Shown: positions 3,843 through 61,928 of the stretch, piece after piece
Layout of the letters: each line of letters opens with the position of its first letter
Position numbering within the stretch: the first letter of the stretch is position 1
Sequence record: ON210139.1
Direction: 5' to 3' (one strand)
Origin: Escherichia phage EC128
DNA: 64,000 nucleotides
The notes under the pieces: generated by a model
What the model was told of the DNA's origin: nothing
The model's input: only the letters and a program-made list of their open reading frames with translations
Database searches by the model: none
Position numbers and translations under genes: made by a program

Positions 3843-4132
3843 TAATGATTCTTTATGCGAAAGTATCATCCATTGAAAATGGATATAAATATGATCAAGA
3901 AGCAGCTAAAGCCTTGATTGATGATTATGGCATTTTAACATATTTTGAAGTTGAAAAGGTTTACATTGACCGTTCATCTTCTCAAGTTAAATTAGTAAAG
4001 GAAGACCGTAAATTTAATACAGTAAATTTTGATTTCTTTATTGAAACAGAAAAAGGTCCTCTTGAATATGATATTTTCAAGAATCCTTTGGGTCTTGAAT
4101 GCATCGTAAATATGTATTATCATAAATGGTAA
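3839..4132 (+). CDS. hypothetical protein
   Basis: 97-aa ORF coupled to upstream gene (ATGA overlap). Confidence 0.5.
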   Translation: MIMILYAKVSSIENGYKYDQEAAKALIDDYGILTYFEVEKVYIDRSSSQVKLVKEDRKFNTVNFDFFIETEKGPLEYDIFKNPLGLECIVNMYYHKW

Positions 4133-4834: not shown

Positions 4835-5500
4835 ATGTTCCATTACACTTATAAAATAACAAATAAAATTAATAATAAAATTTATATTGGTGTGCATTCT
4901 ACCGAAAATTTAGATGATGGATATATGGGTTCTGGTAAATTATTAAAAAGAGCCCAAGATAAATATGGTATAGAAAATTTTTCTAAAGAAATATTAGAGT
5001 ATTTTGATGATAAAGAATCTATGCTTGAAGCCGAGAAAAATATTGTCACAGAAGAGTTTTTAAATAGACCAGATGTGTATAATTTAAAACTTGGCGGTGA
5101 AGGTGGATGGGACCATATAAATATTCCTGGGATGCTAAACCAGAAGAAAGACGCTAGTTTAAAAGGAGCTAAATCGTTTAAGTCACGTTTTAAAAATGAT
5201 ATTTTACTTCAAGAAAAATATCGTAAACATGGTTCAAATGTATTTAAACGCTTGTGGTCAACTCCTGAATACAGGGAAAAATTTTTAAATAATAGCAGAT
5301 TTTTAAATAAGCATCATACTCCTGAAACTATTAATAAAATGAAAGAATCTCACGCCAGAAATAAACACCAACAGGGCGAAAAGAATTCCCAATTTGGTAT
5401 GATGTGGATTCATTCATTAGATGAAAAAGTTTCTAAACGTATTAAGAAAACTGACCCAATTCCAGAAGGATGGTTTAAAGGTCGAAAAATGAAATTTTAA
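4835..5500 (+). CDS. segB: GIY-YIG homing endonuclease SegB-like
   Basis: 221 aa; N-terminal YTYKITNKINNKIYIGVHS...DGYMGSG; NUMOD-like basic repeats; inserted between tRNA-Ile and tRNA-Arg. Confidence 0.8.
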   Translation: MFHYTYKITNKINNKIYIGVHSTENLDDGYMGSGKLLKRAQDKYGIENFSKEILEYFDDKESMLEAEKNIVTEEFLNRPDVYNLKLGGEGGWDHINIPGMLNQKKDASLKGAKSFKSRFKNDILLQEKYRKHGSNVFKRLWSTPEYREKFLNNSRFLNKHHTPETINKMKESHARNKHQQGEKNSQFGMMWIHSLDEKVSKRIKKTDPIPEGWFKGRKMKF

Positions 5501-5968: not shown

Positions 5969-6443
5969 ATGAAATCATATGCTCAATTTTTAAATGAAGC
6001 GGTGTTAAATGAAGCATCTAGCACCGAAATTCAAGCTGTCGCAAAAGCAGCCATTGCCGCGGGTAAATATTCCTATAAAGATGCTTCCGATGAATCGCGA
6101 TTCCAGTTCGCACGCGACATGAAAGCGGAAGGATTTACGGGAAATGCAGTTAGTATGGCCTGGAAAAGTTTAGTTGCTACTGGAGCTGCTTTTGCAAAGG
6201 CTTCAGGTAAACCTGCTCCTAAAGCAGATCCTAAAGCTGCACAAGAAAAAAAATATTGTTAAAGGAATTATCTCCAAATATGAAGCTATCCTTAAAGAGC
6301 TTTTAGTAATCAAAACTGAAGGCCAAAAGCTAGCTCGTGCTTATAGTTTCAAAGATAATCCGCATGCTCATGACCTAGAGTATGTTGAAGACATCCAAAA
6401 AATTATTAAAGACCGCATTTGGTCTGCTAAACAAATCAAATAA
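5969..6443 (+). CDS. internal-protein-like gene with capsid-targeting N-terminus, interrupted by a frame change at an A8 run (6246-6253)
   Basis: N-terminus MKSYAQFLNEA; frame A stops at 6260-6262; the next 64 sense codons (to 6443) are in another frame and contain no Met; one fewer A would fuse them. Confidence 0.5.
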
Positions 6444-6451
6444 CATTCTTA

Positions 6452-6478
6452 GCCCCGACCAAAAGGTTGGGGCTTTTG
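6452..6478 (+). terminator. rho-independent terminator (duplicate of 5896 hairpin)
   Basis: AGCCCCGACC-AAAA-GGTTGGGGCTTTT. Confidence 0.65.
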
Positions 6479-6590
6479 GTATCTAGGCCTTTCTGGGCCT
6501 CTCTAGGCATTATTTAGTTTCTACCCTTTATAATATATTATCCTATCTTTTAATTGCCCCTCCTGACCCTAGAATTCCCTAAAACTTTTT

Positions 6591-6672
6591 AAAAATTTTT
6601 TCACAAAACTGTTTACATCCCTGTTCTTCCATGGTACTATACAACTATCAACTACTGATACAGAAAACAACT
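6591..6672 (+). promoter_or_regulatory. early promoter inside a conserved cassette (copy A)
   Basis: aaaaattttttcacaaaactgtttaca...atggtactatacaactatcaactactgatacag; near-identical to 50011-50097 and 21347-21433. Confidence 0.6.
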
Positions 6673-6683
6673 TGGAGAACGAA

Positions 6684-6947
6684 ATGGATAATTACGGCGA
6701 ACTGTTCAACTTCTTTATGAAATGTGTTTCAGAAGATTTCGGTCGTACAGTGAATGATATTAAAGTTATCGGTCCTGATCATCCGATGTTTGAAACTTAT
6801 GCGGTAATGGGCAATGAAGACGGTCAGTGGTATACTGTAAAGGTTGTGATTAACATGTTCACTGCTGAAAGTTATGTTAAACTGTCTTCTAAAGTTTACC
6901 ATGATAACGACGAAATCGCAGAAGAATATTTCAATAATATGAAATAA
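6684..6947 (+). CDS. hypothetical acidic protein
   Basis: 87 aa from ATG 6684 with GGAG RBS; ORF open from TTG 6672. Confidence 0.5.
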   Translation: MDNYGELFNFFMKCVSEDFGRTVNDIKVIGPDHPMFETYAVMGNEDGQWYTVKVVINMFTAESYVKLSSKVYHDNDEIAEEYFNNMK

Positions 6948-6985
6948 GTTTACATAGGCTCATGATTGAGATATTATGAGCCTAT
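6948..6985 (+). promoter_or_regulatory. early promoter
   Basis: GTTTACA then GAGATATTAT; overlaps inverted repeat GGCTCAT...ATGAGCC. Confidence 0.5.
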
Positions 6986-21433: not shown

Positions 21434-22402
21434 ATGAAAACTGTAACTATCAATAAGGGTATCTACTTCGGTAAAGAAATCTCTGGAACTTTTGAGCTCT
21501 TAGGTGAATGGTTCCCAGATAATGCTCCGGTAGATGCACAAGGAGATGGTAAAGTTTTTGTTGAAATTGACGGTAAGCGTCGCGGTGTTTGGGTTTACAA
21601 ATCAGACATTTCATATGATGGTGTAAAAGTTGAAGAAGTTAAAGAATCATATGAAGATATGAAAACCCGCATTAATAAAAGATTTAATGTTATGGGAATG
21701 ATGACGAATGGTATTATTAACGGAAACATTCGTTCATTAATTATCTCTGGTGCGGCGGGTATTGGTAAAACGTATTCTTTAGATAAAGCTTTGAATAAAG
21801 CAAATGATAATGGATACATTGAATATAAAAGCATTAACGGTAAAATCTCCGGTATCGGTCTTTATGAACAACTTTGGAATAATCGTGAAGAGAATTCTGT
21901 CCTTTTGATTGATGATGTGGATGTTTTCTCTGATATGGACATTCTTAATCTTCTGAAAGCTGCTCTGGACACTGGAGAGACCCGTAAAGTCTGCTGGAGC
22001 ACTGCATCTTCTTACTTAGAAGAAAAAGGCATTGAGCGTGAGTTTGAATTTAAAGGAACGATTGTTTTTATCACAAACGTTGACATTGACCGCGAATTAG
22101 ACCGTGGTACTAAACTTGCTCCACATTTACAAGCATTAGTGTCCCGCTCAGTTTATTTAGATTTGGGTGTTCACACTAATGAAGAAATTATGGTCAGGGT
22201 TGAAGATGTTATTCTTTCAACTGACATGATGCAAAAGCGCGGTCTTTCTGATGAAGAAACTTATAAAGCATTATCATGGATGAAAGTCAATGTTAATCGT
22301 TTACGCAATGTTTCACTGCGTACTGCTCTTTATCTTGCTGACTTTATTATGACCGACAAAAACGGTTGGGAAGAAATCGCTGAAACAGTATTATTAAAAT
22401 GA
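21434..22402 (+). CDS. AAA+/P-loop ATPase
   Basis: 322 aa; Walker A GAAGIGKT, Walker B LLIDDVD; ORF-track start at 21263 reads through the promoter and is rejected. Confidence 0.6.
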   Translation: MKTVTINKGIYFGKEISGTFELLGEWFPDNAPVDAQGDGKVFVEIDGKRRGVWVYKSDISYDGVKVEEVKESYEDMKTRINKRFNVMGMMTNGIINGNIRSLIISGAAGIGKTYSLDKALNKANDNGYIEYKSINGKISGIGLYEQLWNNREENSVLLIDDVDVFSDMDILNLLKAALDTGETRKVCWSTASSYLEEKGIEREFEFKGTIVFITNVDIDRELDRGTKLAPHLQALVSRSVYLDLGVHTNEEIMVRVEDVILSTDMMQKRGLSDEETYKALSWMKVNVNRLRNVSLRTALYLADFIMTDKNGWEEIAETVLLK

Positions 22403-23118
22403 AAAAATATTTTACTATCTATAAAACTGAAATATTAAATTTAAAGACAGGTATTAAGAAATACTATTATGGTCGACATATAACTAATAATATCAATGAT
22501 TCGTATGTTGGTAGTGGAAATTATATAGAACGTGTAAAAGTGTCAAATGACCACATATTATCAAAAACGGTTTTAGAAGTTTTTGATAATTATGATAAAA
22601 TGGTACAAGCTGAAATATTATATATCATGGCAGGTAAATTGAAATATGGGAAAAACTGTGTTAACCTGTCATACGGGGGTGAAGGAGGAAAGGTTGCAGA
22701 TGAAACTAGGATAAAATGCAAAAAGCATTCTATAAATTTATGGAAAAATCCTAATCATATACAGCATATGAAGAAAAAGATGAAAGAGGTCACATCCACG
22801 CCGGAAGCTAAATTAAACACTTCAATAAAAACTTCGCAACGATATAAGGACCCGGTTTTTGTTAGAAAAGTTAGTAATATTATTAAAAAGAAACTAAGCA
22901 ATCCTGTAGTAAAAGAAAAGCATATTAATGGAATTAAAGCTGCAAAGCGTTCTCATTTAACTATATGGCAGTATGAAGATGAATTATTCGAGCTCTGGAA
23001 AGAAACTAAATGTGGATGGAGAAAATTTACAAAGGAAGCTATAAAACACGGATATCCAAATGAACCGTATCGTAGTATGGTATCAACTTTTCAGAAAAGA
23101 CATTTAGAAGAATCCTAA
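22399..23118 (+). CDS. GIY-YIG homing endonuclease (seg-like)
   Basis: 239 aa; N-terminal KYYYGRHITNNINDSYVGSG; basic C-terminal DNA-binding-like repeats. Confidence 0.7.
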   Translation: MKKYFTIYKTEILNLKTGIKKYYYGRHITNNINDSYVGSGNYIERVKVSNDHILSKTVLEVFDNYDKMVQAEILYIMAGKLKYGKNCVNLSYGGEGGKVADETRIKCKKHSINLWKNPNHIQHMKKKMKEVTSTPEAKLNTSIKTSQRYKDPVFVRKVSNIIKKKLSNPVVKEKHINGIKAAKRSHLTIWQYEDELFELWKETKCGWRKFTKEAIKHGYPNEPYRSMVSTFQKRHLEES

Positions 23119-30333: not shown

Positions 30334-30807
30334 ATGTTATTGACTGGCAAATTATATAAAAAAGAAAAACAGAAATTTTATGATGCACAAAATGGTAAAT
30401 GCTTAATTTGCCAACGAGAACTAAATCCTGACGTTCAAGCTAATCACCTCGACCATGACCATGAATTAAATGGACCAAAAGCAGGAAAGGTACGTGGATT
30501 GCTTTGTAATCTATGCAATGCCGCAGAAGGTCAAATGAAGCATAAATTTAATCGTTCTGGCTTAAAGGGACAGGGTGTTGATTATCTTGAATGGTTAGAA
30601 AATTTACTTACTTACTTAAAATCCGATTACACCCAAAATAATATTCACCCTAACTTCGTTGGAGATAAATCAAAGGAATTTTCTCGTTTAGGAAAAGAGG
30701 AAATGATGGCTGAGATGCTTCAAAGAGGATTTGAATATAATGAATCTGACACCAAAACACAATTAATAGCTTCATTTAAGAAGCAGCTTAGAAAGAGTTT
30801 AAAATGA
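30334..30807 (+). CDS. 49: endonuclease VII (Holliday-junction resolvase)
   Basis: 157 aa; CLICQ...HLDHDH...CNLCN His-Me finger/zinc motif. Confidence 0.9.
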   Translation: MLLTGKLYKKEKQKFYDAQNGKCLICQRELNPDVQANHLDHDHELNGPKAGKVRGLLCNLCNAAEGQMKHKFNRSGLKGQGVDYLEWLENLLTYLKSDYTQNNIHPNFVGDKSKEFSRLGKEEMMAEMLQRGFEYNESDTKTQLIASFKKQLRKSLK

Positions 30808-31341
30808 CAATTGAAAAAGAAATTGAAGGATTGATTCATAAAACTAATAAAGACCTTTTGAACGAGAATGCTAATAAAGATTCTCGTGTTTTTCCAACTC
30901 AACGGGACCTTATGGCTGGTATTGTGTCTAAACACATTGCCAAAAATATGGTCCCGTCTTTTATTATGAAAGCGCATGAAAGCGGAATTATCCATTTCCA
31001 TGATATTGATTATTCCCCTGCTCTTCCATTTACTAATTGCTGTTTAGTAGATTTAAAAGGAATGCTTGAGAACGGATTTAAGCTCGGTAATGCACAGATT
31101 GAAACTCCTAAATCAATTGGCGTTGCTACTGCAATTATGGCACAAATTACTGCACAGGTTGCTTCCCATCAATATGGCGGAACGACTTTTGCGAATGTAG
31201 ATAAAGTACTTTCTCCTTATGTTAAACGCACCTATGCAAAACATATTGAAGATGCAGAAAAATGGCAAATCGCCGATGCGTTGAATTATGCTCAATCTAA
31301 AACAGAAAAAGACGTATACGATGCATTCCAAGCTTATGAGT
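30804..31341 (+). CDS. nrdD: anaerobic ribonucleotide reductase NrdD, exon 1
   Basis: Frame runs to 31349 but homology to exon 2 resumes at 32381; splice after U31341 inferred. Confidence 0.8.
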
Positions 31342-31545
31342 TAACGTAAGTCAAGCTCATGTAAAATCTGCCTAAAACGGGAAACTCTCACTGAGACAAT
31401 CCGTTGCTAAATCAGCGGTAGCTGTAAATGCCCAACGACTATCCCTGATGAATGTAAGGGAGTAGGGTCAAGCGACCCGAAACGGCAGACAACTCTTAGA
31501 GTTGAAGATATAGTCTGAACTGCATGGCGACATGCAGCTGTTTAT

Positions 31546-31569
31546 CCTCGTATAAATACGAATACGAGG
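31546..31569 (+). promoter_or_regulatory. late promoter TATAAATA embedded in a hairpin that sequesters the intron-ORF RBS
   Basis: CCTCGTA-TAAATACGAA-TACGAGG; GAGG of the stem is the SD for the ATG at 31577. Confidence 0.6.
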
Positions 31570-31576
31570 TGAAACG

Positions 31577-32353
31577 ATGAAATGGAAATTAAGAAAAAGC
31601 TTAAAAATTGACAATTCTGTAGCATTTACCTATATGGTAAGATTTCCTGATAAGTCTTTTTATATAGGTTTTAAAAAATTCAAAACTATATATGGTAAAG
31701 ATACAAATTGGAAAGAATACAATTCGTCATCTAAGCTTGTTAAAGAAAAGCTTAAAGATTATAAAGCTAAGTGGATAATTCTTCAAGTTTTTGATTCTTA
31801 TGAATCGGCCCTTAAACATGAAGAAATGCTTATTAGGAAACATTTTAATAACGAATTTATTCTTAATAAATCTATAGGTGGATATAAATTTAACAAATAT
31901 CCGGATTCAGAAGAACATAAGCAAAAACTTAGTAATGCCCATAAAGGTAAAATCTTATCTTTAAAACATAAAGATAAGATACGAGAGAAATTGATTGAGC
32001 ATTATAAAAATAATAGTAGAAGTGAAGCTCATGTTAAAAATAATATTGGTAGTAGAACGGCTAAAAAGACTGTTTCTATAGCTTTAAAATCCGGAAATAA
32101 ATTTAGAAGTTTTAAATCAGCTGCAAAATTTCTTAAATGCTCTGAAGAACAGGTTAGTAATCATCCAAATGTTATAGATATAAAAATAACAATTCATCCC
32201 GTCCCAGAATATGTTAGAATAAATGACAATATCTATAAATCATTTGTGGATGCTGCTAAAGATTTAAAACTCCACCCAAGTCGTATTAAAGATTTGTGCT
32301 TAGATGACAATTATCCAAATTACATTGTTTCATATAAACGGGTAGAGAAGTAG
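31577..32353 (+). CDS. intron-encoded GIY-YIG homing endonuclease, I-TevII-like
   Basis: 258 aa; FTYMVRFPDKSFYIGF; located inside the nrdD intron. Confidence 0.75.
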   Translation: MKWKLRKSLKIDNSVAFTYMVRFPDKSFYIGFKKFKTIYGKDTNWKEYNSSSKLVKEKLKDYKAKWIILQVFDSYESALKHEEMLIRKHFNNEFILNKSIGGYKFNKYPDSEEHKQKLSNAHKGKILSLKHKDKIREKLIEHYKNNSRSEAHVKNNIGSRTAKKTVSIALKSGNKFRSFKSAAKFLKCSEEQVSNHPNVIDIKITIHPVPEYVRINDNIYKSFVDAAKDLKLHPSRIKDLCLDDNYPNYIVSYKRVEK

Positions 32354-32380
32354 CGAACTCTACTGAACACATTGATGAAG

Positions 32381-33654
32381 TGAACACGTTATTCAGTTCA
32401 AACGGACAAACGCCTTTTGTAACAATTACATTTGGTACGGGAACTGACTGGACTGAACGAATGATTCAGAAAGCAATTTTGAAAAATCGTATTAAAGGTC
32501 TTGGTCGTGATGGGATAACTCCTATTTTCCCTAAGCTTGTTATGTTCGTTGAAGAAGGTGTTAATCTTTATAAAGACGATCCGAACTATGATATTAAGCA
32601 GCTTGCTCTAGAGTGTGCAAGCAAAAGGATGTATCCTGATATTATTTCAGCTAAGAACAATAAAGCTATCACTGGTTCATCTGTTCCTGTTTCTCCAATG
32701 GGTTGCCGTAGTTTCTTGAGCGTATGGAAAGATTCGACTGGTAATGAAATTCTTGATGGACGTAATAATCTTGGTGTTGTAACACTGAATCTTCCTCGCA
32801 TCGCGTTAGATTCTTATATTGGAACACAGTTCAATGAACAGAAATTTGTTGAATTATTCAATGAACGAATGGATTTGTGTTTTGAAGCATTGATGTGTAG
32901 AATTAGTTCCTTAAAAGGAGTTAAAGCTACTGTTGCTCCTATTCTTTACCAAGAAGGTGCATTCGGGGTTCGTCTTAAACCTGATGACGATATAATTGAG
33001 TTATTTAAAAGCGGTAGAAGTTCAGTGTCCCTAGGATACATTGGTATTCACGAATTGAATATTCTTGTTGGTCGTGATATTGGACAAGAAATTTTAACTA
33101 AAATGAATACTCATCTTAAACAATGGACTGAAAGAACTGGTTTTGCTTTTAGTTTGTATTCTACTCCTGCTGAAAACCTGTGCTATCGCTTCTGTAAACT
33201 TGATACCGAAAAATATGGAAGTGTAAAAGATGTTACCGATAAAGGCTGGTACACTAACAGTTTCCACGTTTCGGTAGAAGAAAATATTACTCCATTTGAA
33301 AAGATTTCTCGCGAAGCCCCATATCATTTCATTGCGACAGGTGGTCACATTTCTTATGTTGAACTTCCTGATATGAAAAATAACTTAAAAGGTCTTGAGG
33401 CCGTATGGGATTATGCTGCACAACATTTAGATTATTTTGGTGTTAACATGCCGGTAGATAAATGTTTTACATGCGGAAGTACCCATGAAATGACTCCTAC
33501 TGAAAACGGATTTGTTTGTTCTATTTGTGGAGAAACTGATCCTAAAAAGATGAACACCATAAGAAGAACATGCGGATATCTTGGAACTCCTAGCGTTGTT
33601 CCATGGAATTTAGGTAAAATGAAAGAAATGGTAAAACGAGTAAAACATGCATAG
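32381..33654 (+). CDS. nrdD: anaerobic ribonucleotide reductase NrdD, exon 2
   Basis: Zinc site CFTCGSTH...CSICGE and glycyl-radical motif RRTCGYLG near the C-terminus. Confidence 0.85.
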
Positions 33655-34477
33655 GTATTATATAATTTATAAAATAACAAATATAATTAATTCAAAGGAA
33701 TATATCGGTGCGCATAGCACCGATAACATAAATGACGGTTATATGGGGTCAGGAACATTGATTCGTGCCGCTTTATTAAAATATGGTAGAAAAAATTTTA
33801 ATAAAGAAATTTTACATGTTTTTGATAATGAAAAACAAATGTATGATAAAGAAGCTGAACTTGTAACCGAAGAGTATTGTCTAAAAGAAAATACATATAA
33901 TATTAAACCTGGTGGAAAAGGTGGAACTGCCTATGAACAGACACTTGAACATCGCCGCAAAAATAGTTTAGCAAATAAAGGTAAAAAGAGAACAGAAGAA
34001 ACTAAAATAGCTATTTCACGTGCTTTAAAGAAATATAAACGTACGCCAGAGCATCAAGCAAATTTAAATAAAGCCGTAAGCATAGCTATGAAGCGAAAAG
34101 ATGTTAGAAGTAAATTAGCTGGAGAGCGGTCTGAGAAAGATAAATTATCTATATCAAACGGTGTTAAAAAATATTACAATTCTTTGAGTGAAGAAGAACG
34201 CGAACTTCATCGCAAGCGAATTATTGAAGGTAAAAAGAATTCTCCCATGTCATTGGAATCTAGACAAAAGCTTTCAAAAGCTTTAAAAGGACTTCAAGTT
34301 GGTTCAAAAAATCCAATGTATGGAAAAATTTCTCCAACTAGCAAAACCGTTTCAGTTGACGGTATTAAATATGATTCAATTAAAAAGTGCTCAAATGCCA
34401 TAAAAGTTTCTAGACATCTTATACTAAAACGCTGTAATTCTACTGATGAAGCTTGGAAAAATTGGATATTATTATGA
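33647..34477 (+). CDS. GIY-YIG homing endonuclease (seg-like) between nrdD and nrdG
   Basis: 276 aa; YYIIYKITNIINSKEYIGAHSTDNINDGYMGSG; overlaps the nrdD stop and the nrdG start. Confidence 0.75.
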   Translation: MHRYYIIYKITNIINSKEYIGAHSTDNINDGYMGSGTLIRAALLKYGRKNFNKEILHVFDNEKQMYDKEAELVTEEYCLKENTYNIKPGGKGGTAYEQTLEHRRKNSLANKGKKRTEETKIAISRALKKYKRTPEHQANLNKAVSIAMKRKDVRSKLAGERSEKDKLSISNGVKKYYNSLSEEERELHRKRIIEGKKNSPMSLESRQKLSKALKGLQVGSKNPMYGKISPTSKTVSVDGIKYDSIKKCSNAIKVSRHLILKRCNSTDEAWKNWILL

Positions 34478-34944
34478 ATTATGACAGAATATACCCGTGC
34501 TGCTTTGTGAATGGCCCTGGATGCAGGGTCGTTCTTTTCGTTACAGGTTGTTTGCATAAATGTGAAGGGTGTTATAATAAATCAACATGGAATGCTAGAA
34601 ATGGTGTTCCATTCACTGGTGAAACACTAGAACAATTAATTGAATGTTTGAATAATGATTATATAGAAGGATTGACTATAACCGGAGGTGACCCTCTTTA
34701 TCCTGATAACAGAGACGTGATTCACTCTGTGGTTCAAACTATTAAAAATCTTTATCCCAATAAAAGCATTTGGTTGTGGACAGGATATAAGTTTGAAGAT
34801 ATTAAACAACTAGAAATGCTTAAATATGTTGATGTTATTATTGATGGGAAGTATGAGAAAAATCTTCCGACTAAAAAGCTGTGGCGAGGATCAGATAATC
34901 AGCGACTTTGGTCAAATACCGATGGGGTGTGGACACATGATTAA
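34474..34944 (+). CDS. nrdG: anaerobic RNR activating enzyme NrdG (radical SAM)
   Basis: 156 aa from ATG 34474; CLHKCEGCYN radical-SAM cysteine motif. Confidence 0.85.
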   Translation: MNYDRIYPCCFVNGPGCRVVLFVTGCLHKCEGCYNKSTWNARNGVPFTGETLEQLIECLNNDYIEGLTITGGDPLYPDNRDVIHSVVQTIKNLYPNKSIWLWTGYKFEDIKQLEMLKYVDVIIDGKYEKNLPTKKLWRGSDNQRLWSNTDGVWTHD

Positions 34945-51137: not shown

Positions 51138-51878
51138 ATGATTAACGATTATATGACAGTTGAAGAAATCCGTCTTGATTTGGGTCTTGCATTAAAGGAA
51201 AAAGATTTCGTAATTGATAAAACCGGGGTTAAAACTATTGAAATTATTGGTGCATCATTTGTAGCAGATGAACCTTTTATTTTTGGCGCTCTTAATGATG
51301 AATACATTCAGCGTGAACTTGAATGGTATAAATCTAAGAGCTTGTTCGTTAAAGATATTCCAGGTGAAACACCGAAGATTTGGCAGCAGGTAGCATCTTC
51401 TAAAGGCGAAATTAACTCGAATTATGGTTGGGCTATCTGGTCAGAAGATAACTATGCTCAGTATGATATGTGTTTAGCTGAACTTGGTCAAAATCCTGAT
51501 TCTCGACGTGGTATCATGATTTATACTCGTCCATCCATGCAATTTGACTACAATAAAGATGGTATGTCAGATTTCATGTGTACGAATACAGTACAGTACC
51601 TGATTCGTGATAAGAAAGTCAATGCGGTTGTTAGCATGAGAAGCAATGATTGCTGGGCAGGCTATCGTAATGATTATGCTTGGCAAAAATACGTACTAGA
51701 TAAATTAGTATCTGATTTGAATGCAGGCGACCCATCGCGGCAATATAAAGCAGGTTCTATTATATGGAACGTTGGAAGTCTTCATGTGTACGAAAATCAG
51801 TTTTATTTAGTTGACCATTGGTGGAACACCGGTGAGACTCATATTGCTAAAAAGGATTATACTGGAAAATGGAAGTAA
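51138..51878 (+). CDS. 42: dCMP hydroxymethylase gp42
   Basis: 246 aa, thymidylate-synthase-like fold cues (DFMCT nucleophile region). Confidence 0.85.
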   Translation: MINDYMTVEEIRLDLGLALKEKDFVIDKTGVKTIEIIGASFVADEPFIFGALNDEYIQRELEWYKSKSLFVKDIPGETPKIWQQVASSKGEINSNYGWAIWSEDNYAQYDMCLAELGQNPDSRRGIMIYTRPSMQFDYNKDGMSDFMCTNTVQYLIRDKKVNAVVSMRSNDCWAGYRNDYAWQKYVLDKLVSDLNAGDPSRQYKAGSIIWNVGSLHVYENQFYLVDHWWNTGETHIAKKDYTGKWK

Positions 51879-52510
51879 ATGTGCCACATGTTTATAAGTA
51901 TAAACATCCTAAAACTAAAAAGTGGTATATAGGAAGTCATGATGGTCACAACCCGAATTATGACGGTTCGGGTGTAGTTTGGCAACATGCTAAAAAGAAA
52001 TATGGAATAAAATCCTTTAATAAAGAAATATTATATGAAGGACCAATGTTTAGACAGGTTGAAGAAATTATTTTAACTTGTTTAGATGCTGCTAATTGTC
52101 CGGATTCATATAATTTAAAGAATGAAGCATGGGGAGGAAGTTTTCCAGGCAAATTAAATGGAATGTACGGTAAAAAACTATCTCCAGAAGAAAGATATAA
52201 GTGCGGAAATGCCTTTCGTGGAATCAAGCGTCCTGATCATTCTAAAAGAATGAAAGGCGAAGGTAATCCAATGTATGGTAAAAATGAGCAGGCATATGGA
52301 ATTATAAATCGAGCAAAGGAAAATTCTGGTAAAACTTATGAAGAAATTTTTGGCGCAGAAAAAGCTAAAATAATTAAAGAAACGATGTCTAAAAATCGTA
52401 AAGGAAAACCTCATAATTTGATAGAAAAAATATGTCCGCATTGCGGACTAAAAGGACGTGGGCCAAATATGACAAGATACCATTTTGACAAATGTAAGGC
52501 ACTTAAATGA
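51869..52510 (+). CDS. GIY-YIG homing endonuclease (seg-like)
   Basis: 213 aa; HVYKYKHPKTKKWYIGSHDGHNPNYDGSG; overlaps flanking genes at both ends. Confidence 0.7.
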   Translation: MEVNVPHVYKYKHPKTKKWYIGSHDGHNPNYDGSGVVWQHAKKKYGIKSFNKEILYEGPMFRQVEEIILTCLDAANCPDSYNLKNEAWGGSFPGKLNGMYGKKLSPEERYKCGNAFRGIKRPDHSKRMKGEGNPMYGKNEQAYGIINRAKENSGKTYEEIFGAEKAKIIKETMSKNRKGKPHNLIEKICPHCGLKGRGPNMTRYHFDKCKALK

Positions 52511-60748: not shown

Positions 60749-61264
60749 ATGCCACATTTCAACGAATGTAGTCAACTGATCGAAGGCGCTGATAAAGCTC
60801 AAAATGAGTATTGGGATATTCTCGGTGATGAAAAAGACCCGCTGCAGGTTATGCTTGATATGCAGAAATCTTTACAGGTTCGTTTAGCAAATGACCGCGA
60901 ATACTGTTATCATCCAGATAAATTAGAAACTGCCGGTGATGTTGTTTCTTGGATGCGTGAACAAAAAGACTGTATTGATGATGAATTCCGCGAACTTCTG
61001 ACTTCTCTTGGTGAAATGTCACGTGGTGAAAAAGATGCATCGGCAGTTTGGAAAAAATGGAAAGCACGTTATATTGAAGCGCAAGAAAAACGCATTGATG
61101 AAATGTCCCCAGAAGATCAGCTCGAAATTAAATTTGAGCTTGTGGATATATTTCATTTCGTATTAAATATGTTTGCTGGCCTTGGAATGAATGCGGAAGA
61201 AATCTTTAAACTTTATTATTTGAAAAATAAACATAATTTTGAACGTCAAGATAATGGGTATTAA
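60749..61264 (+). CDS. 56: dCTPase/dCTP pyrophosphatase gp56
   Basis: 171 aa, MazG-like acidic helical protein at the T4 gene 56 position. Confidence 0.75.
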   Translation: MPHFNECSQLIEGADKAQNEYWDILGDEKDPLQVMLDMQKSLQVRLANDREYCYHPDKLETAGDVVSWMREQKDCIDDEFRELLTSLGEMSRGEKDASAVWKKWKARYIEAQEKRIDEMSPEDQLEIKFELVDIFHFVLNMFAGLGMNAEEIFKLYYLKNKHNFERQDNGY

Positions 61265-61928
61265 ACAAAAATTTTATAGAACATATATAGTAAAAGTTAG
61301 GACGCCGAAAGGCGTCTTTTGGTACGCTGGGAAACATGAATCATTTATTGTAAATCCATATGATGATAAATATCCGGGGTCAGGCAAAATACTATGGAAC
61401 ATATATCGTAAGTATGGTTTTAATTATAAAATACGTTGGTCAAAATGCCATGGTTCTAGAGAAAAATCATATGAAGTTGAACGCGAGCTAATATCTGCAT
61501 TAAAACGTAAACACCCAGATACTTGCATTAATATTTCTCCTGGTGGTCAGGGTGGAGAAGGAAGAAAATGGACTGAGCAACAACGATTAGAACATAAACT
61601 TAGATTAAACAATCCTGAAACAAAAACTCGGATGAAGAATTCACAACGTATAGCCCAAAATAGAGCAGAACGAAAAGCTCGGCAATCTGAAGTAATGAAA
61701 AAGTTTTATTCGAATGGCGGAAATAAAAAGATTTCAGAAGGAACTTCAAGGGCGCAAAGAAAAGCGCCGCATTGGCATGAACCGCTTAAAAGCGAAATAC
61801 ATGAGTTATGGGTTTCTTTAGGTAAACCAGCAACAGGCCCGGTTGTAAAGGCGCTTAAAGGAAAATATGATGTAACAAGTTCAGCTCTTAAGAATTTAAT
61901 TTACTTATTCAGAAAAGAAGATATATAA
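61254..61928 (+). CDS. segF: GIY-YIG homing endonuclease SegF-like
   Basis: 224 aa from ATG 61254; YRTYIVKV...FWYAGKHES...YPGSG; between 56 and soc. Confidence 0.75.
   Translation: MGIKQKFYRTYIVKVRTPKGVFWYAGKHESFIVNPYDDKYPGSGKILWNIYRKYGFNYKIRWSKCHGSREKSYEVERELISALKRKHPDTCINISPGGQGGEGRKWTEQQRLEHKLRLNNPETKTRMKNSQRIAQNRAERKARQSEVMKKFYSNGGNKKISEGTSRAQRKAPHWHEPLKSEIHELWVSLGKPATGPVVKALKGKYDVTSSALKNLIYLFRKEDI

Follow-up and report, generated by a model that had tools for sequence, protein, structure and literature searches.

SegH, a free-standing GIY-YIG homing endonuclease of the T-even phages, is the closest described counterpart of the gene analysed here, and a study by Sandegren, Nord and Sjöberg (Nucleic Acids Research 2005, 33:6203) gave it its name and reportedly characterised it, in phages T6, RB3 and LZ2. 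In that work segH reportedly replaces mobC in 3 of the 18 phages screened. The enzyme is further said to cut near its own locus, in segH-containing and segH-less DNA alike, and reportedly homes in mixed infections. T4 SegD, SegE and SegB, which represent the PF19835 (SegE_GIY-YIG) subtype, share the catalytic subtype of SegH. They differ from it in their insertion sites (genes 23/24, inh/uvsW and the tRNA cluster) and in their C-terminal DNA-binding regions, so their targets differ from that of SegH, which is also longer and has more NUMOD3-like helices. Homing endonuclease activity has been demonstrated by experiment for SegB and SegE (PMC2330249; PMC2988022, Table 1), and SegB leaves 2-nt 3' overhangs (PMC2330249). 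I-TevI, the td intron endonuclease whose catalytic domain is available as PDB 1LN0 and 1MK0, is intron-encoded, whereas SegH is free-standing. T4 MobC, an HNH enzyme, and an endonuclease of the type found in phage UFV-AREG1 occupy the same junction as SegH; their genes run in the same direction and likewise overlap the flanking ribonucleotide reductase (RNR) genes. MobC has HH...N...H motifs that SegH does not have. Judged by annotation and motifs for MobC and by BLASTP for the UFV-AREG1-type protein, both appear unrelated to SegH.

The 64-kb stretch of DNA analysed here, hereafter the window, belongs to Tequatrovirus, and its best 24-kb database match is about 96% identical. On its plus strand, the gene for the anaerobic RNR large subunit, nrdD, extends over 30804..33654 and consists of exon 1 (30804-31341), a group I intron (31342-32374) and exon 2 (32375-33654), while the gene for the 156-aa anaerobic RNR activase, nrdG, extends over 34474..34944. 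Pfam matches the upstream product to NRDD/Gly_radical (3.9e-122) and the downstream product to Fer4_12/Radical_SAM, a radical-SAM activase (4.5e-49); the latter gene is annotated nrdG in RB3, PP01 and T4. Between the two, on the same strand, lies the segH coding sequence (33647..34477), comprising 276 codons plus a stop and identified from the ORF call and from its identity to RB3 SegH. In the ORF list of the window it starts with the ATG at 33647 and stops with the TGA at 34475-34477. The exon 2 frame of nrdD ends ...GTA AAA CAT GCA TAG, with the TAG at 33652-33654, so that nrdD and segH overlap by 8 nt, and the nrdG ATG at 34474 produces a 4-nt ATGA overlap with the segH TGA. The initial annotation, which had described a 276-aa ORF overlapping nrdD by 8 nt and nrdG by 4 nt, is thus reproduced exactly at 33647-34477 (+). 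Its designation of the ORF as a free-standing seg-type GIY-YIG endonuclease gene can be narrowed to segH, since the protein is identical to RB3 SegH (ABI48949.1) at 276 of 276 residues and has a predicted GIY-YIG fold.

The segH DNA is present in 72 phage records, and in 54 of these the identity is 99-100%. PP01, F2 and SYGD1 are among the matching records annotated "segH: SegH homing endonuclease", and the matches also include the short GenBank records AY262138.2 (RB3) and AY262139.2 (LZ2), with AY262137.2 (T6) annotated likewise. These T6, RB3 and LZ2 records, deposited by the original authors, show the order nrdD-segH-nrdG with identical 8-nt and 4-nt overlaps, and at the DNA level the alleles of T6 and the window share 98.9% identity. 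Comparison with the RB3 and T4 records places segH in the orientation of nrdD and nrdG and in the position of T4 mobC. In length, position and overlaps, the gene shows no difference from segH of T6, RB3 and LZ2. Given the protein identity with RB3 SegH and the annotated records, the gene at this junction is not new; it is already known, having been named segH since 2005 and annotated in dozens of genomes. We are highly confident that the ORF at 33647-34477 is segH, the T-even free-standing GIY-YIG homing endonuclease gene, carried as a promoter-less cassette within the nrdD-nrdG transcription unit, with classical intron-less homing as its probable mode of spread.

The manner in which segH is fitted between its neighbours can be read from alleles that do not carry it. 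In T2, where the two RNR genes abut, the junction reads ...AAAGAAAT CATGCATAGG GTTAAGCATCAATGA, the final ATGA being the nrdD stop over the nrdG start. Pairwise alignments with T2, T4 and UFV-AREG1 reveal a 16-nt insertion in the window relative to segH-less alleles, GGTAAAACGAGTAAAA (33630..33645, plus strand), which stands directly before CATGCATAGG. This insertion frameshifts nrdD, so that NrdD ends in ...KEMVKRVKHA rather than in ...KEIMHRVKHQ, and the old in-frame nrdD codons ATG CAT AGG become segH codons 1-3 (M-H-R). The 12 codons ahead of the insertion are also recoded (TPSVVPWNLGKM versus NPNERGFNLGKN). T4 mobC and the UFV-AREG1-type gene, the two HNH genes at this site, open with a second copy of the codons that begin nrdG (MNYDRIY... 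in the former, MNYDRFYPCDF... in the latter), which indicates that they were inserted just inside nrdG, whereas segH begins on former nrdD codons. The recoded nrdD tail is present in 80 records and segH in 72. A strict linkage of this tail to segH was considered and rejected, as phage SHFML-11 combines the tail with mobC and phage PD112 combines it with a segH remnant.

Across related phages the junction is mostly vacant. A 2-kb query spanning it matched 834 records. These were sampled at even intervals, and of the 49 sampled records that have both flanks, about 40 cover 1178 bp, corresponding to an empty junction; the remainder carry segH (5), a remnant (1), a different gene of similar size (2) or, in T4, mobC. 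Direct searches recovered segH in 72 records and mobC and the UFV-AREG1-type gene in 32 each, and about 9% of related genomes have segH. The gene in T4 is mobC, annotated as H-N-H family, phages of the UFV-AREG1 type have a 279-aa endonuclease gene, and in T2 and most relatives nrdD adjoins nrdG with nothing between. The earlier statement that relatives carry a different endonuclease or none at this position is therefore borne out. We considered whether the UFV-AREG1-type endonuclease might be a diverged SegH and rejected this, as BLASTP detected no significant similarity. Two alleles record further changes at the site. In PD112, 588 nt of segH have been deleted in frame between 7-nt repeats, and the first 139 and last 111 nt are kept, yielding an 80-aa in-frame remnant that has lost the half of the catalytic domain in which Glu and Asn lie. 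SHFML-11 is a recombinant in which a segH-type nrdD tail, including the 16-nt insertion, passes into a mobC allele, the join falling precisely at the CATGCATAGG common to both; in its nrdG, stretches of segH type and of T4 type form a mosaic. Two homologues with 47-48% identity, P0003 and P0004, are encoded on distant metagenomic phage contigs about 52 nt after the nrdD stop, with nrdG 2 kb further on, which suggests that the SegH lineage is tied to the 3' end of nrdD and not to nrdG. Taken as a whole, the segH locus is not a new kind of thing; the observation and its interpretation are correct but ordinary and carry little weight as a discovery. It does, however, exemplify the life cycle of homing endonucleases with textbook clarity, with empty sites, three unrelated endonuclease genes, a recombinant, a deleted remnant and cross-genus transfer of a cassette all displayed at one junction.

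The cassette in question is an apparent mobile or co-conversion unit of about 1.05 kb (33540..34595, plus strand, with boundaries accurate to roughly 30 nt), which takes in the recoded tail of nrdD over its last ~35 codons, the whole of segH and some 40 codons at the start of nrdG. Compared with Salmonella phage KM16 (Moonvirus), this interval is 88-95% identical per 100 nt, mostly 91-95%, as against 72% in the rest of nrdD and nrdG, and its edges fall at the nrdD glycyl-radical codons and just past the nrdG codons for the radical-SAM cysteine cluster. The conserved stretches that delimit it lie at 33540-33582 on the nrdD side and at 34495-34590 on the nrdG side. Within Tequatrovirus the cassette is 98-100% identical versus 89-95% in its flanks. 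Against RB3 and PP01, for example, segH reaches 99.5-100%, nrdD at 33000-33400 94-95%, and nrdG at 34600-34800 89.5-92%, the identity profile peaking at 33400-34500. FL18, a member of Mosigvirus, also carries segH. The suggestion that the junction is a site of localised gene conversion is upheld by the identity peak over segH and its flanks, the cassette shared with Moonvirus and the SHFML-11 recombinant. A more elaborate reading would take the moving unit to be the ~1.05-kb cassette complete with recoded RNR gene ends, crossing between Tequatrovirus, Mosigvirus and Moonvirus, perhaps dragging the nrdD intron with it and relying on catalysis without an arginine-bearing helix; as a package, we regard this as a tentative proposal, with the odds clearly against it.

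The intron inside nrdD, which had been recognised in the initial annotation, is real according to both Rfam and splice reconstruction. Intron_gpI scores 98.2 bits at 31306-31537, and splicing out 31342-32374 (1033 nt) yields a 605-aa NrdD that is identical at 603 of 605 positions to the uninterrupted PP01 protein. The intron contains the 258-aa I-TevII ORF, also GIY-YIG (31577..32353, plus strand), with DNA 99-100% identical to the T4 region annotated I-TevII. It has no match in the RB3, T6 and PP01 alleles examined and is missing from most phages with segH. The presence of segH together with an I-TevII-containing intron in one nrdD is uncommon, being found elsewhere in the collection only in RPN226 and fPS-2. 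An obligatory hitch-hiking arrangement, with the nrdD intron always paired with an endonuclease gene at the junction, was rejected on account of phages that have the intron and an empty nrdD/nrdG junction, namely vB_EcoM_G8 and Manna (each spanning 2828 bp); a fragment from U5 also has the intron and an apparently empty junction, with only nrdD and nrdG annotated. Collaborative or trans homing has been shown for mobE and the nrdB intron. Breaks made by SegH may, in a comparable way, drag along the group I intron of nrdD, which lies 1.3 kb upstream.

The SegH protein can be divided into three regions. The N-terminal catalytic GIY-YIG domain comprises residues 1-95 (33647..33931, plus strand), with Y8 in 'IIY', Y19-I-G21 as 'YIG', E69/E71 and N85. 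In the structure model, this domain is confidently predicted to adopt the GIY-YIG fold, a three-stranded sheet flanked by helices, with pLDDT of 95-98 over residues 1-90. A long helical linker follows (residues 96-225; 33932..34321, plus strand), which has NUMOD3-like repeats, is much longer than the linker of I-TevI and presumably serves as a spacer that binds DNA in the minor groove. The model predicts helices in it at residues 100-110, 117-129, 134-149, 151-158, 163-179, 182-198 and 203-213, and Pfam NUMOD3 matches residues 200-228 above its curated cut-off (E 3.1e-8, 33.8 bits versus 20.4). Residues 226-276 (34322..34474, plus strand) tentatively form a DNA-binding module of the I-TevI helix-turn-helix kind at the C-terminus. 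Over residues 226-273, Pfam I-TevI_DNA-bd scores 21.1 bits (E 3e-4), short of its 27-bit cut-off; the homologues P0003 and P0004 carry PF20987, and model confidence is low for the last 15 residues. The only cysteines of SegH, C78, C248 and C263, are scattered and form no CxxC pairs, so the protein has no zinc finger of the I-TevI type. Pfam detected no HNH family in SegH.

From sequence alone, the membership of SegH in the GIY-YIG family is only weakly indicated. The protein does not reach the cut-off of the Pfam GIY-YIG models, scoring 18.6 bits against 25 for PF19835 SegE_GIY-YIG (E 2.4e-3) and giving no match to PF01541; many close SegH homologues carry one or both of these domains. Single-sequence phmmer against PDB sequences returned only noise, and a profile of the family reached I-TevI only at E 0.037. 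The affinity to the other Seg proteins is clearer. T4 SegD aligns with SegH over nearly its full length (E 1e-34), the N-terminal domain is 45% identical to that of T4 SegE and 53% identical to that of a SegB-like ORF in the window, and all four share the motif YIG-x-H-[SA]-T-x3-[ND]-DGY[ML]GSG.

Among 41 homologues, Y8, Y19, G21, E69 and N85 are invariant (41 of 41) and E71 is conserved in at least 90%; N85 sits in Y84-N85-I. In profile and MAFFT alignments, Y8, Y19 and G21 correspond to Y6, Y17 and G19 of I-TevI, the SegH Glu lies within one position of Glu75, and N85 falls exactly on Asn90. Four of the five classical GIY-YIG catalytic positions are thus present in SegH. A counterpart of I-TevI Arg27/His31 is absent from the same alignments, where DFEKRWKRH falls in a 9-residue gap. 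Residues 26-36 of SegH are modelled as a loop in the place of helix alpha-1 of I-TevI, and the stretch between residues 18 and 39 contains neither Arg nor Lys. By MAFFT, the absence of the Arg27 helix is common to T4 SegD, T4 SegE and the SegB-like ORF of the window. Loss of the catalytic Arg and Glu had been named in advance as the mark of a degenerate copy. The Glu, together with the Asn, is conserved; an equivalent of the Arg27 helix is lacking, but its absence characterises the entire SegB/D/E/H subgroup, and since that subgroup includes active enzymes, it gives no sign of degeneration in the window copy. Without Arg27, the catalytic mechanism of SegH may differ in detail from that of I-TevI. 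It is conceivable that the GIY-YIG domain of the SegB/D/E/H type works without the canonical Arg-bearing helix, another residue substituting for the arginine, for which H23, R40 or K45 may be candidates in SegH. If the locus holds biochemical interest, it may lie here, in a group of enzymes without the catalytic-arginine helix of I-TevI that nevertheless has active members.

Given this architecture, we propose a model in which the N-terminal GIY-YIG domain would be tethered by the long NUMOD3-type helical linker to the C-terminal helix-turn-helix module. By analogy with I-TevI and SegB, a single SegH molecule would recognise an extended asymmetric target and, close to the point where nrdD meets nrdG in a co-infecting genome, cleave both strands at staggered positions. 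In a mixed infection, as the sequence patterns suggest, the phage recombination machinery would repair the break from the segH-bearing genome, and the repair would copy segH with about 100 nt on each side, including the recoded C-terminal tail of nrdD and the variant 5' end of nrdG. The transfer footprints in the sequences are consistent with the site-specific cleavage near its own locus and the homing attributed to SegH.

Other explanations of the ORF differ greatly in plausibility. That it is a frame left open by chance in AT-rich sequence, or a piece of nrdD or nrdG that was joined wrongly, deserves practically no credence. Nothing beyond the overlaps with both neighbours would favour it, and it is contradicted by 602 SegH homologues at E<=1e-3 in a database search, by the identical annotated gene in many phages, by the confidently predicted fold and by T2, where nrdD and nrdG are complete without segH and share the ATGA overlap. 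Purifying selection on segH, as indicated here by a dN/dS of 0.17 against the 92%-identical KM16 gene, with 0.13-0.20 in each of the three domains, argues both against a chance frame and against a decaying or inactive remnant that is kept only through its overlap with both RNR genes. The latter idea is very improbable, though it has more to recommend it: SegH lacks the canonical I-TevI helix with Arg27, and decayed alleles exist at the site, as the remnant in PD112 illustrates. However, the helix is equally missing from active SegB and SegE, the ORF is full length and without a single residue changed from RB3 SegH, and all seven independent segH alleles examined are intact 831-nt ORFs. The recent spread of segH across genera, as reconstructed from the alignments, would likewise imply activity.

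A more serious contender, which we nonetheless consider unlikely, accepts that SegH is active and places its main selected role in a benefit to the phage, through marker exclusion directed at the nrdD/nrdG alleles of competing phages, or through break-driven recombination or amplification of genes nearby, rather than in selfish homing. The cutting of segH-containing DNA reported for SegH fits pure homing poorly, and at least five other GIY-YIG genes are present in the window. SegF, SegG and SegE are known to cause localised marker exclusion (PMC2330249), and SegB has recently been reported to promote the amplification of anti-defence loci (PMC13096335). On the other side, no anti-defence gene is evident adjoining segH, and the gene is patchily distributed among relatives: some junctions are empty, some copies have suffered deletions, and elsewhere unrelated endonuclease genes have taken its place. 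Such a distribution points to a selfish cycle of invasion and decay rather than to a conserved beneficial gene, and selfish homing remains our preferred reading of segH.

Little in the DNA ahead of segH would provide for its independent expression. A motif scan found neither a T4 late promoter motif (TATAAATA) nor a MotA-type middle promoter motif before the gene, and a sigma-70-like scan gave fewer sites than shuffled sequence. The region has a single late motif, TATAAATA at 31551, which precedes I-TevII, while nrdD is preceded by a middle-like motif at 30715. As the segH ATG lies 8 nt inside nrdD and is preceded by only a weak Shine-Dalgarno-like GAG, its translation is probably weak and dependent on that of nrdD, through coupling or re-initiation. 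Coupled low-level translation has also been proposed for segC, segF, mobA and mobC in the review by Edgell (PMC2988022).

At the nrdD/nrdG junction, the place taken by segH in the window is held in phages T4 and UFV-AREG1 by HNH-type genes, namely mobC (positions 6352-6984 of the T4 sequence L003) and an HNH-type gene at positions 2152-2991 of the UFV-AREG1 sequence L005. Both begin with a duplicate of the nrdG 5' end; over its first 32 nt, the UFV-type gene matches the start of nrdG in more than 300 phages. The duplication points to insertion of the HNH-type genes just inside nrdG, which would have left a second, recoded nrdG start downstream.

The segH-type allele itself also occurs in recombinant and deleted forms. 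In Shigella phage SHFML-11 (1800-2700 of sequence L013), CATGCATAGG marks the junction of the segH-type nrdD tail, the recoded 3' end including its 16-nt insertion, with a T4-type remainder and mobC. The nrdG of this phage has a segH-type start (YPCC) and is T4-type thereafter; its annotation in the record is truncated at the 5' end, although the full 156-aa ORF begins at position 2507. Escherichia phage vB_vPM_PD112 carries a segH remnant (2148-2390 of sequence L006): 588 nt flanked by 7-nt direct repeats (AAATATG) have been lost in frame, and an unannotated 80-aa ORF remains. Its nrdG is intact from position 2387, and the record annotation begins at 2465. In the Mosigvirus FL18, an Escherichia phage (1202-2693 of sequence L014), the expected place of nrdD is occupied by a GIY-YIG-like ORF of 222 aa that is joined in frame to an nrdD tail of segH type, of which the final 22 codons are present (...TPSVVPWNLGKMKEMVKRVKHA*); intact segH and nrdG come next. 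At this locus of FL18, nrdD appears to have been deleted or replaced.

The window holds six GIY-YIG genes: segH, the intron-borne I-TevII gene and four seg-like ORFs, all on the + strand, of 221 aa (4835-5500), 239 aa (22399-23118), 213 aa (51869-52510) and 224 aa (61254-61928). The first of these shares 53% identity with SegH across the catalytic domain and looks like SegB. Throughout the SegB/D/E/H subgroup, the Arg27/His31 helix of I-TevI is replaced by a conserved loop with the consensus H-[SA]-T-x3-[ND]-D-G-Y-[ML]-G-S-G. In SegH this loop lies within residues 22-36 (window 33710-33754), with the same segment in T4 SegD, T4 SegE and the SegB-like ORF; H23, T25, D30, Y32, G34, S35 and G36 of SegH are invariant or nearly so among 41 homologues.

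The nrdD group I intron (window 31342-32374) encloses an intact 258-aa I-TevII ORF (31577-32353) with 99-100% identity to that of T4, and a late-promoter motif, TATAAATA, lies 5' of this ORF at 31551. Many other segH-positive phages align to the intron region only from 32312 onwards, so that the insert they have at this nrdD site is another one.

On two distant phage contigs, L009 and L012, the SegH-like gene downstream of nrdD has its own 52-nt leader (3949-4000 and 364-416, respectively), in which a GC-rich hairpin (GCGCC...GGGCGC) occurs together with a Shine-Dalgarno sequence (GAGGG), whereas segH in the window is overlapping and promoter-less. Within the first 20 codons of the window's nrdG, inside the cassette that it shares with Salmonella phage KM16, lies a hairpin resembling a terminator, with 11 pairs and then TTTTCGTT (34509-34534, + strand), which could attenuate read-through or be coincidental.
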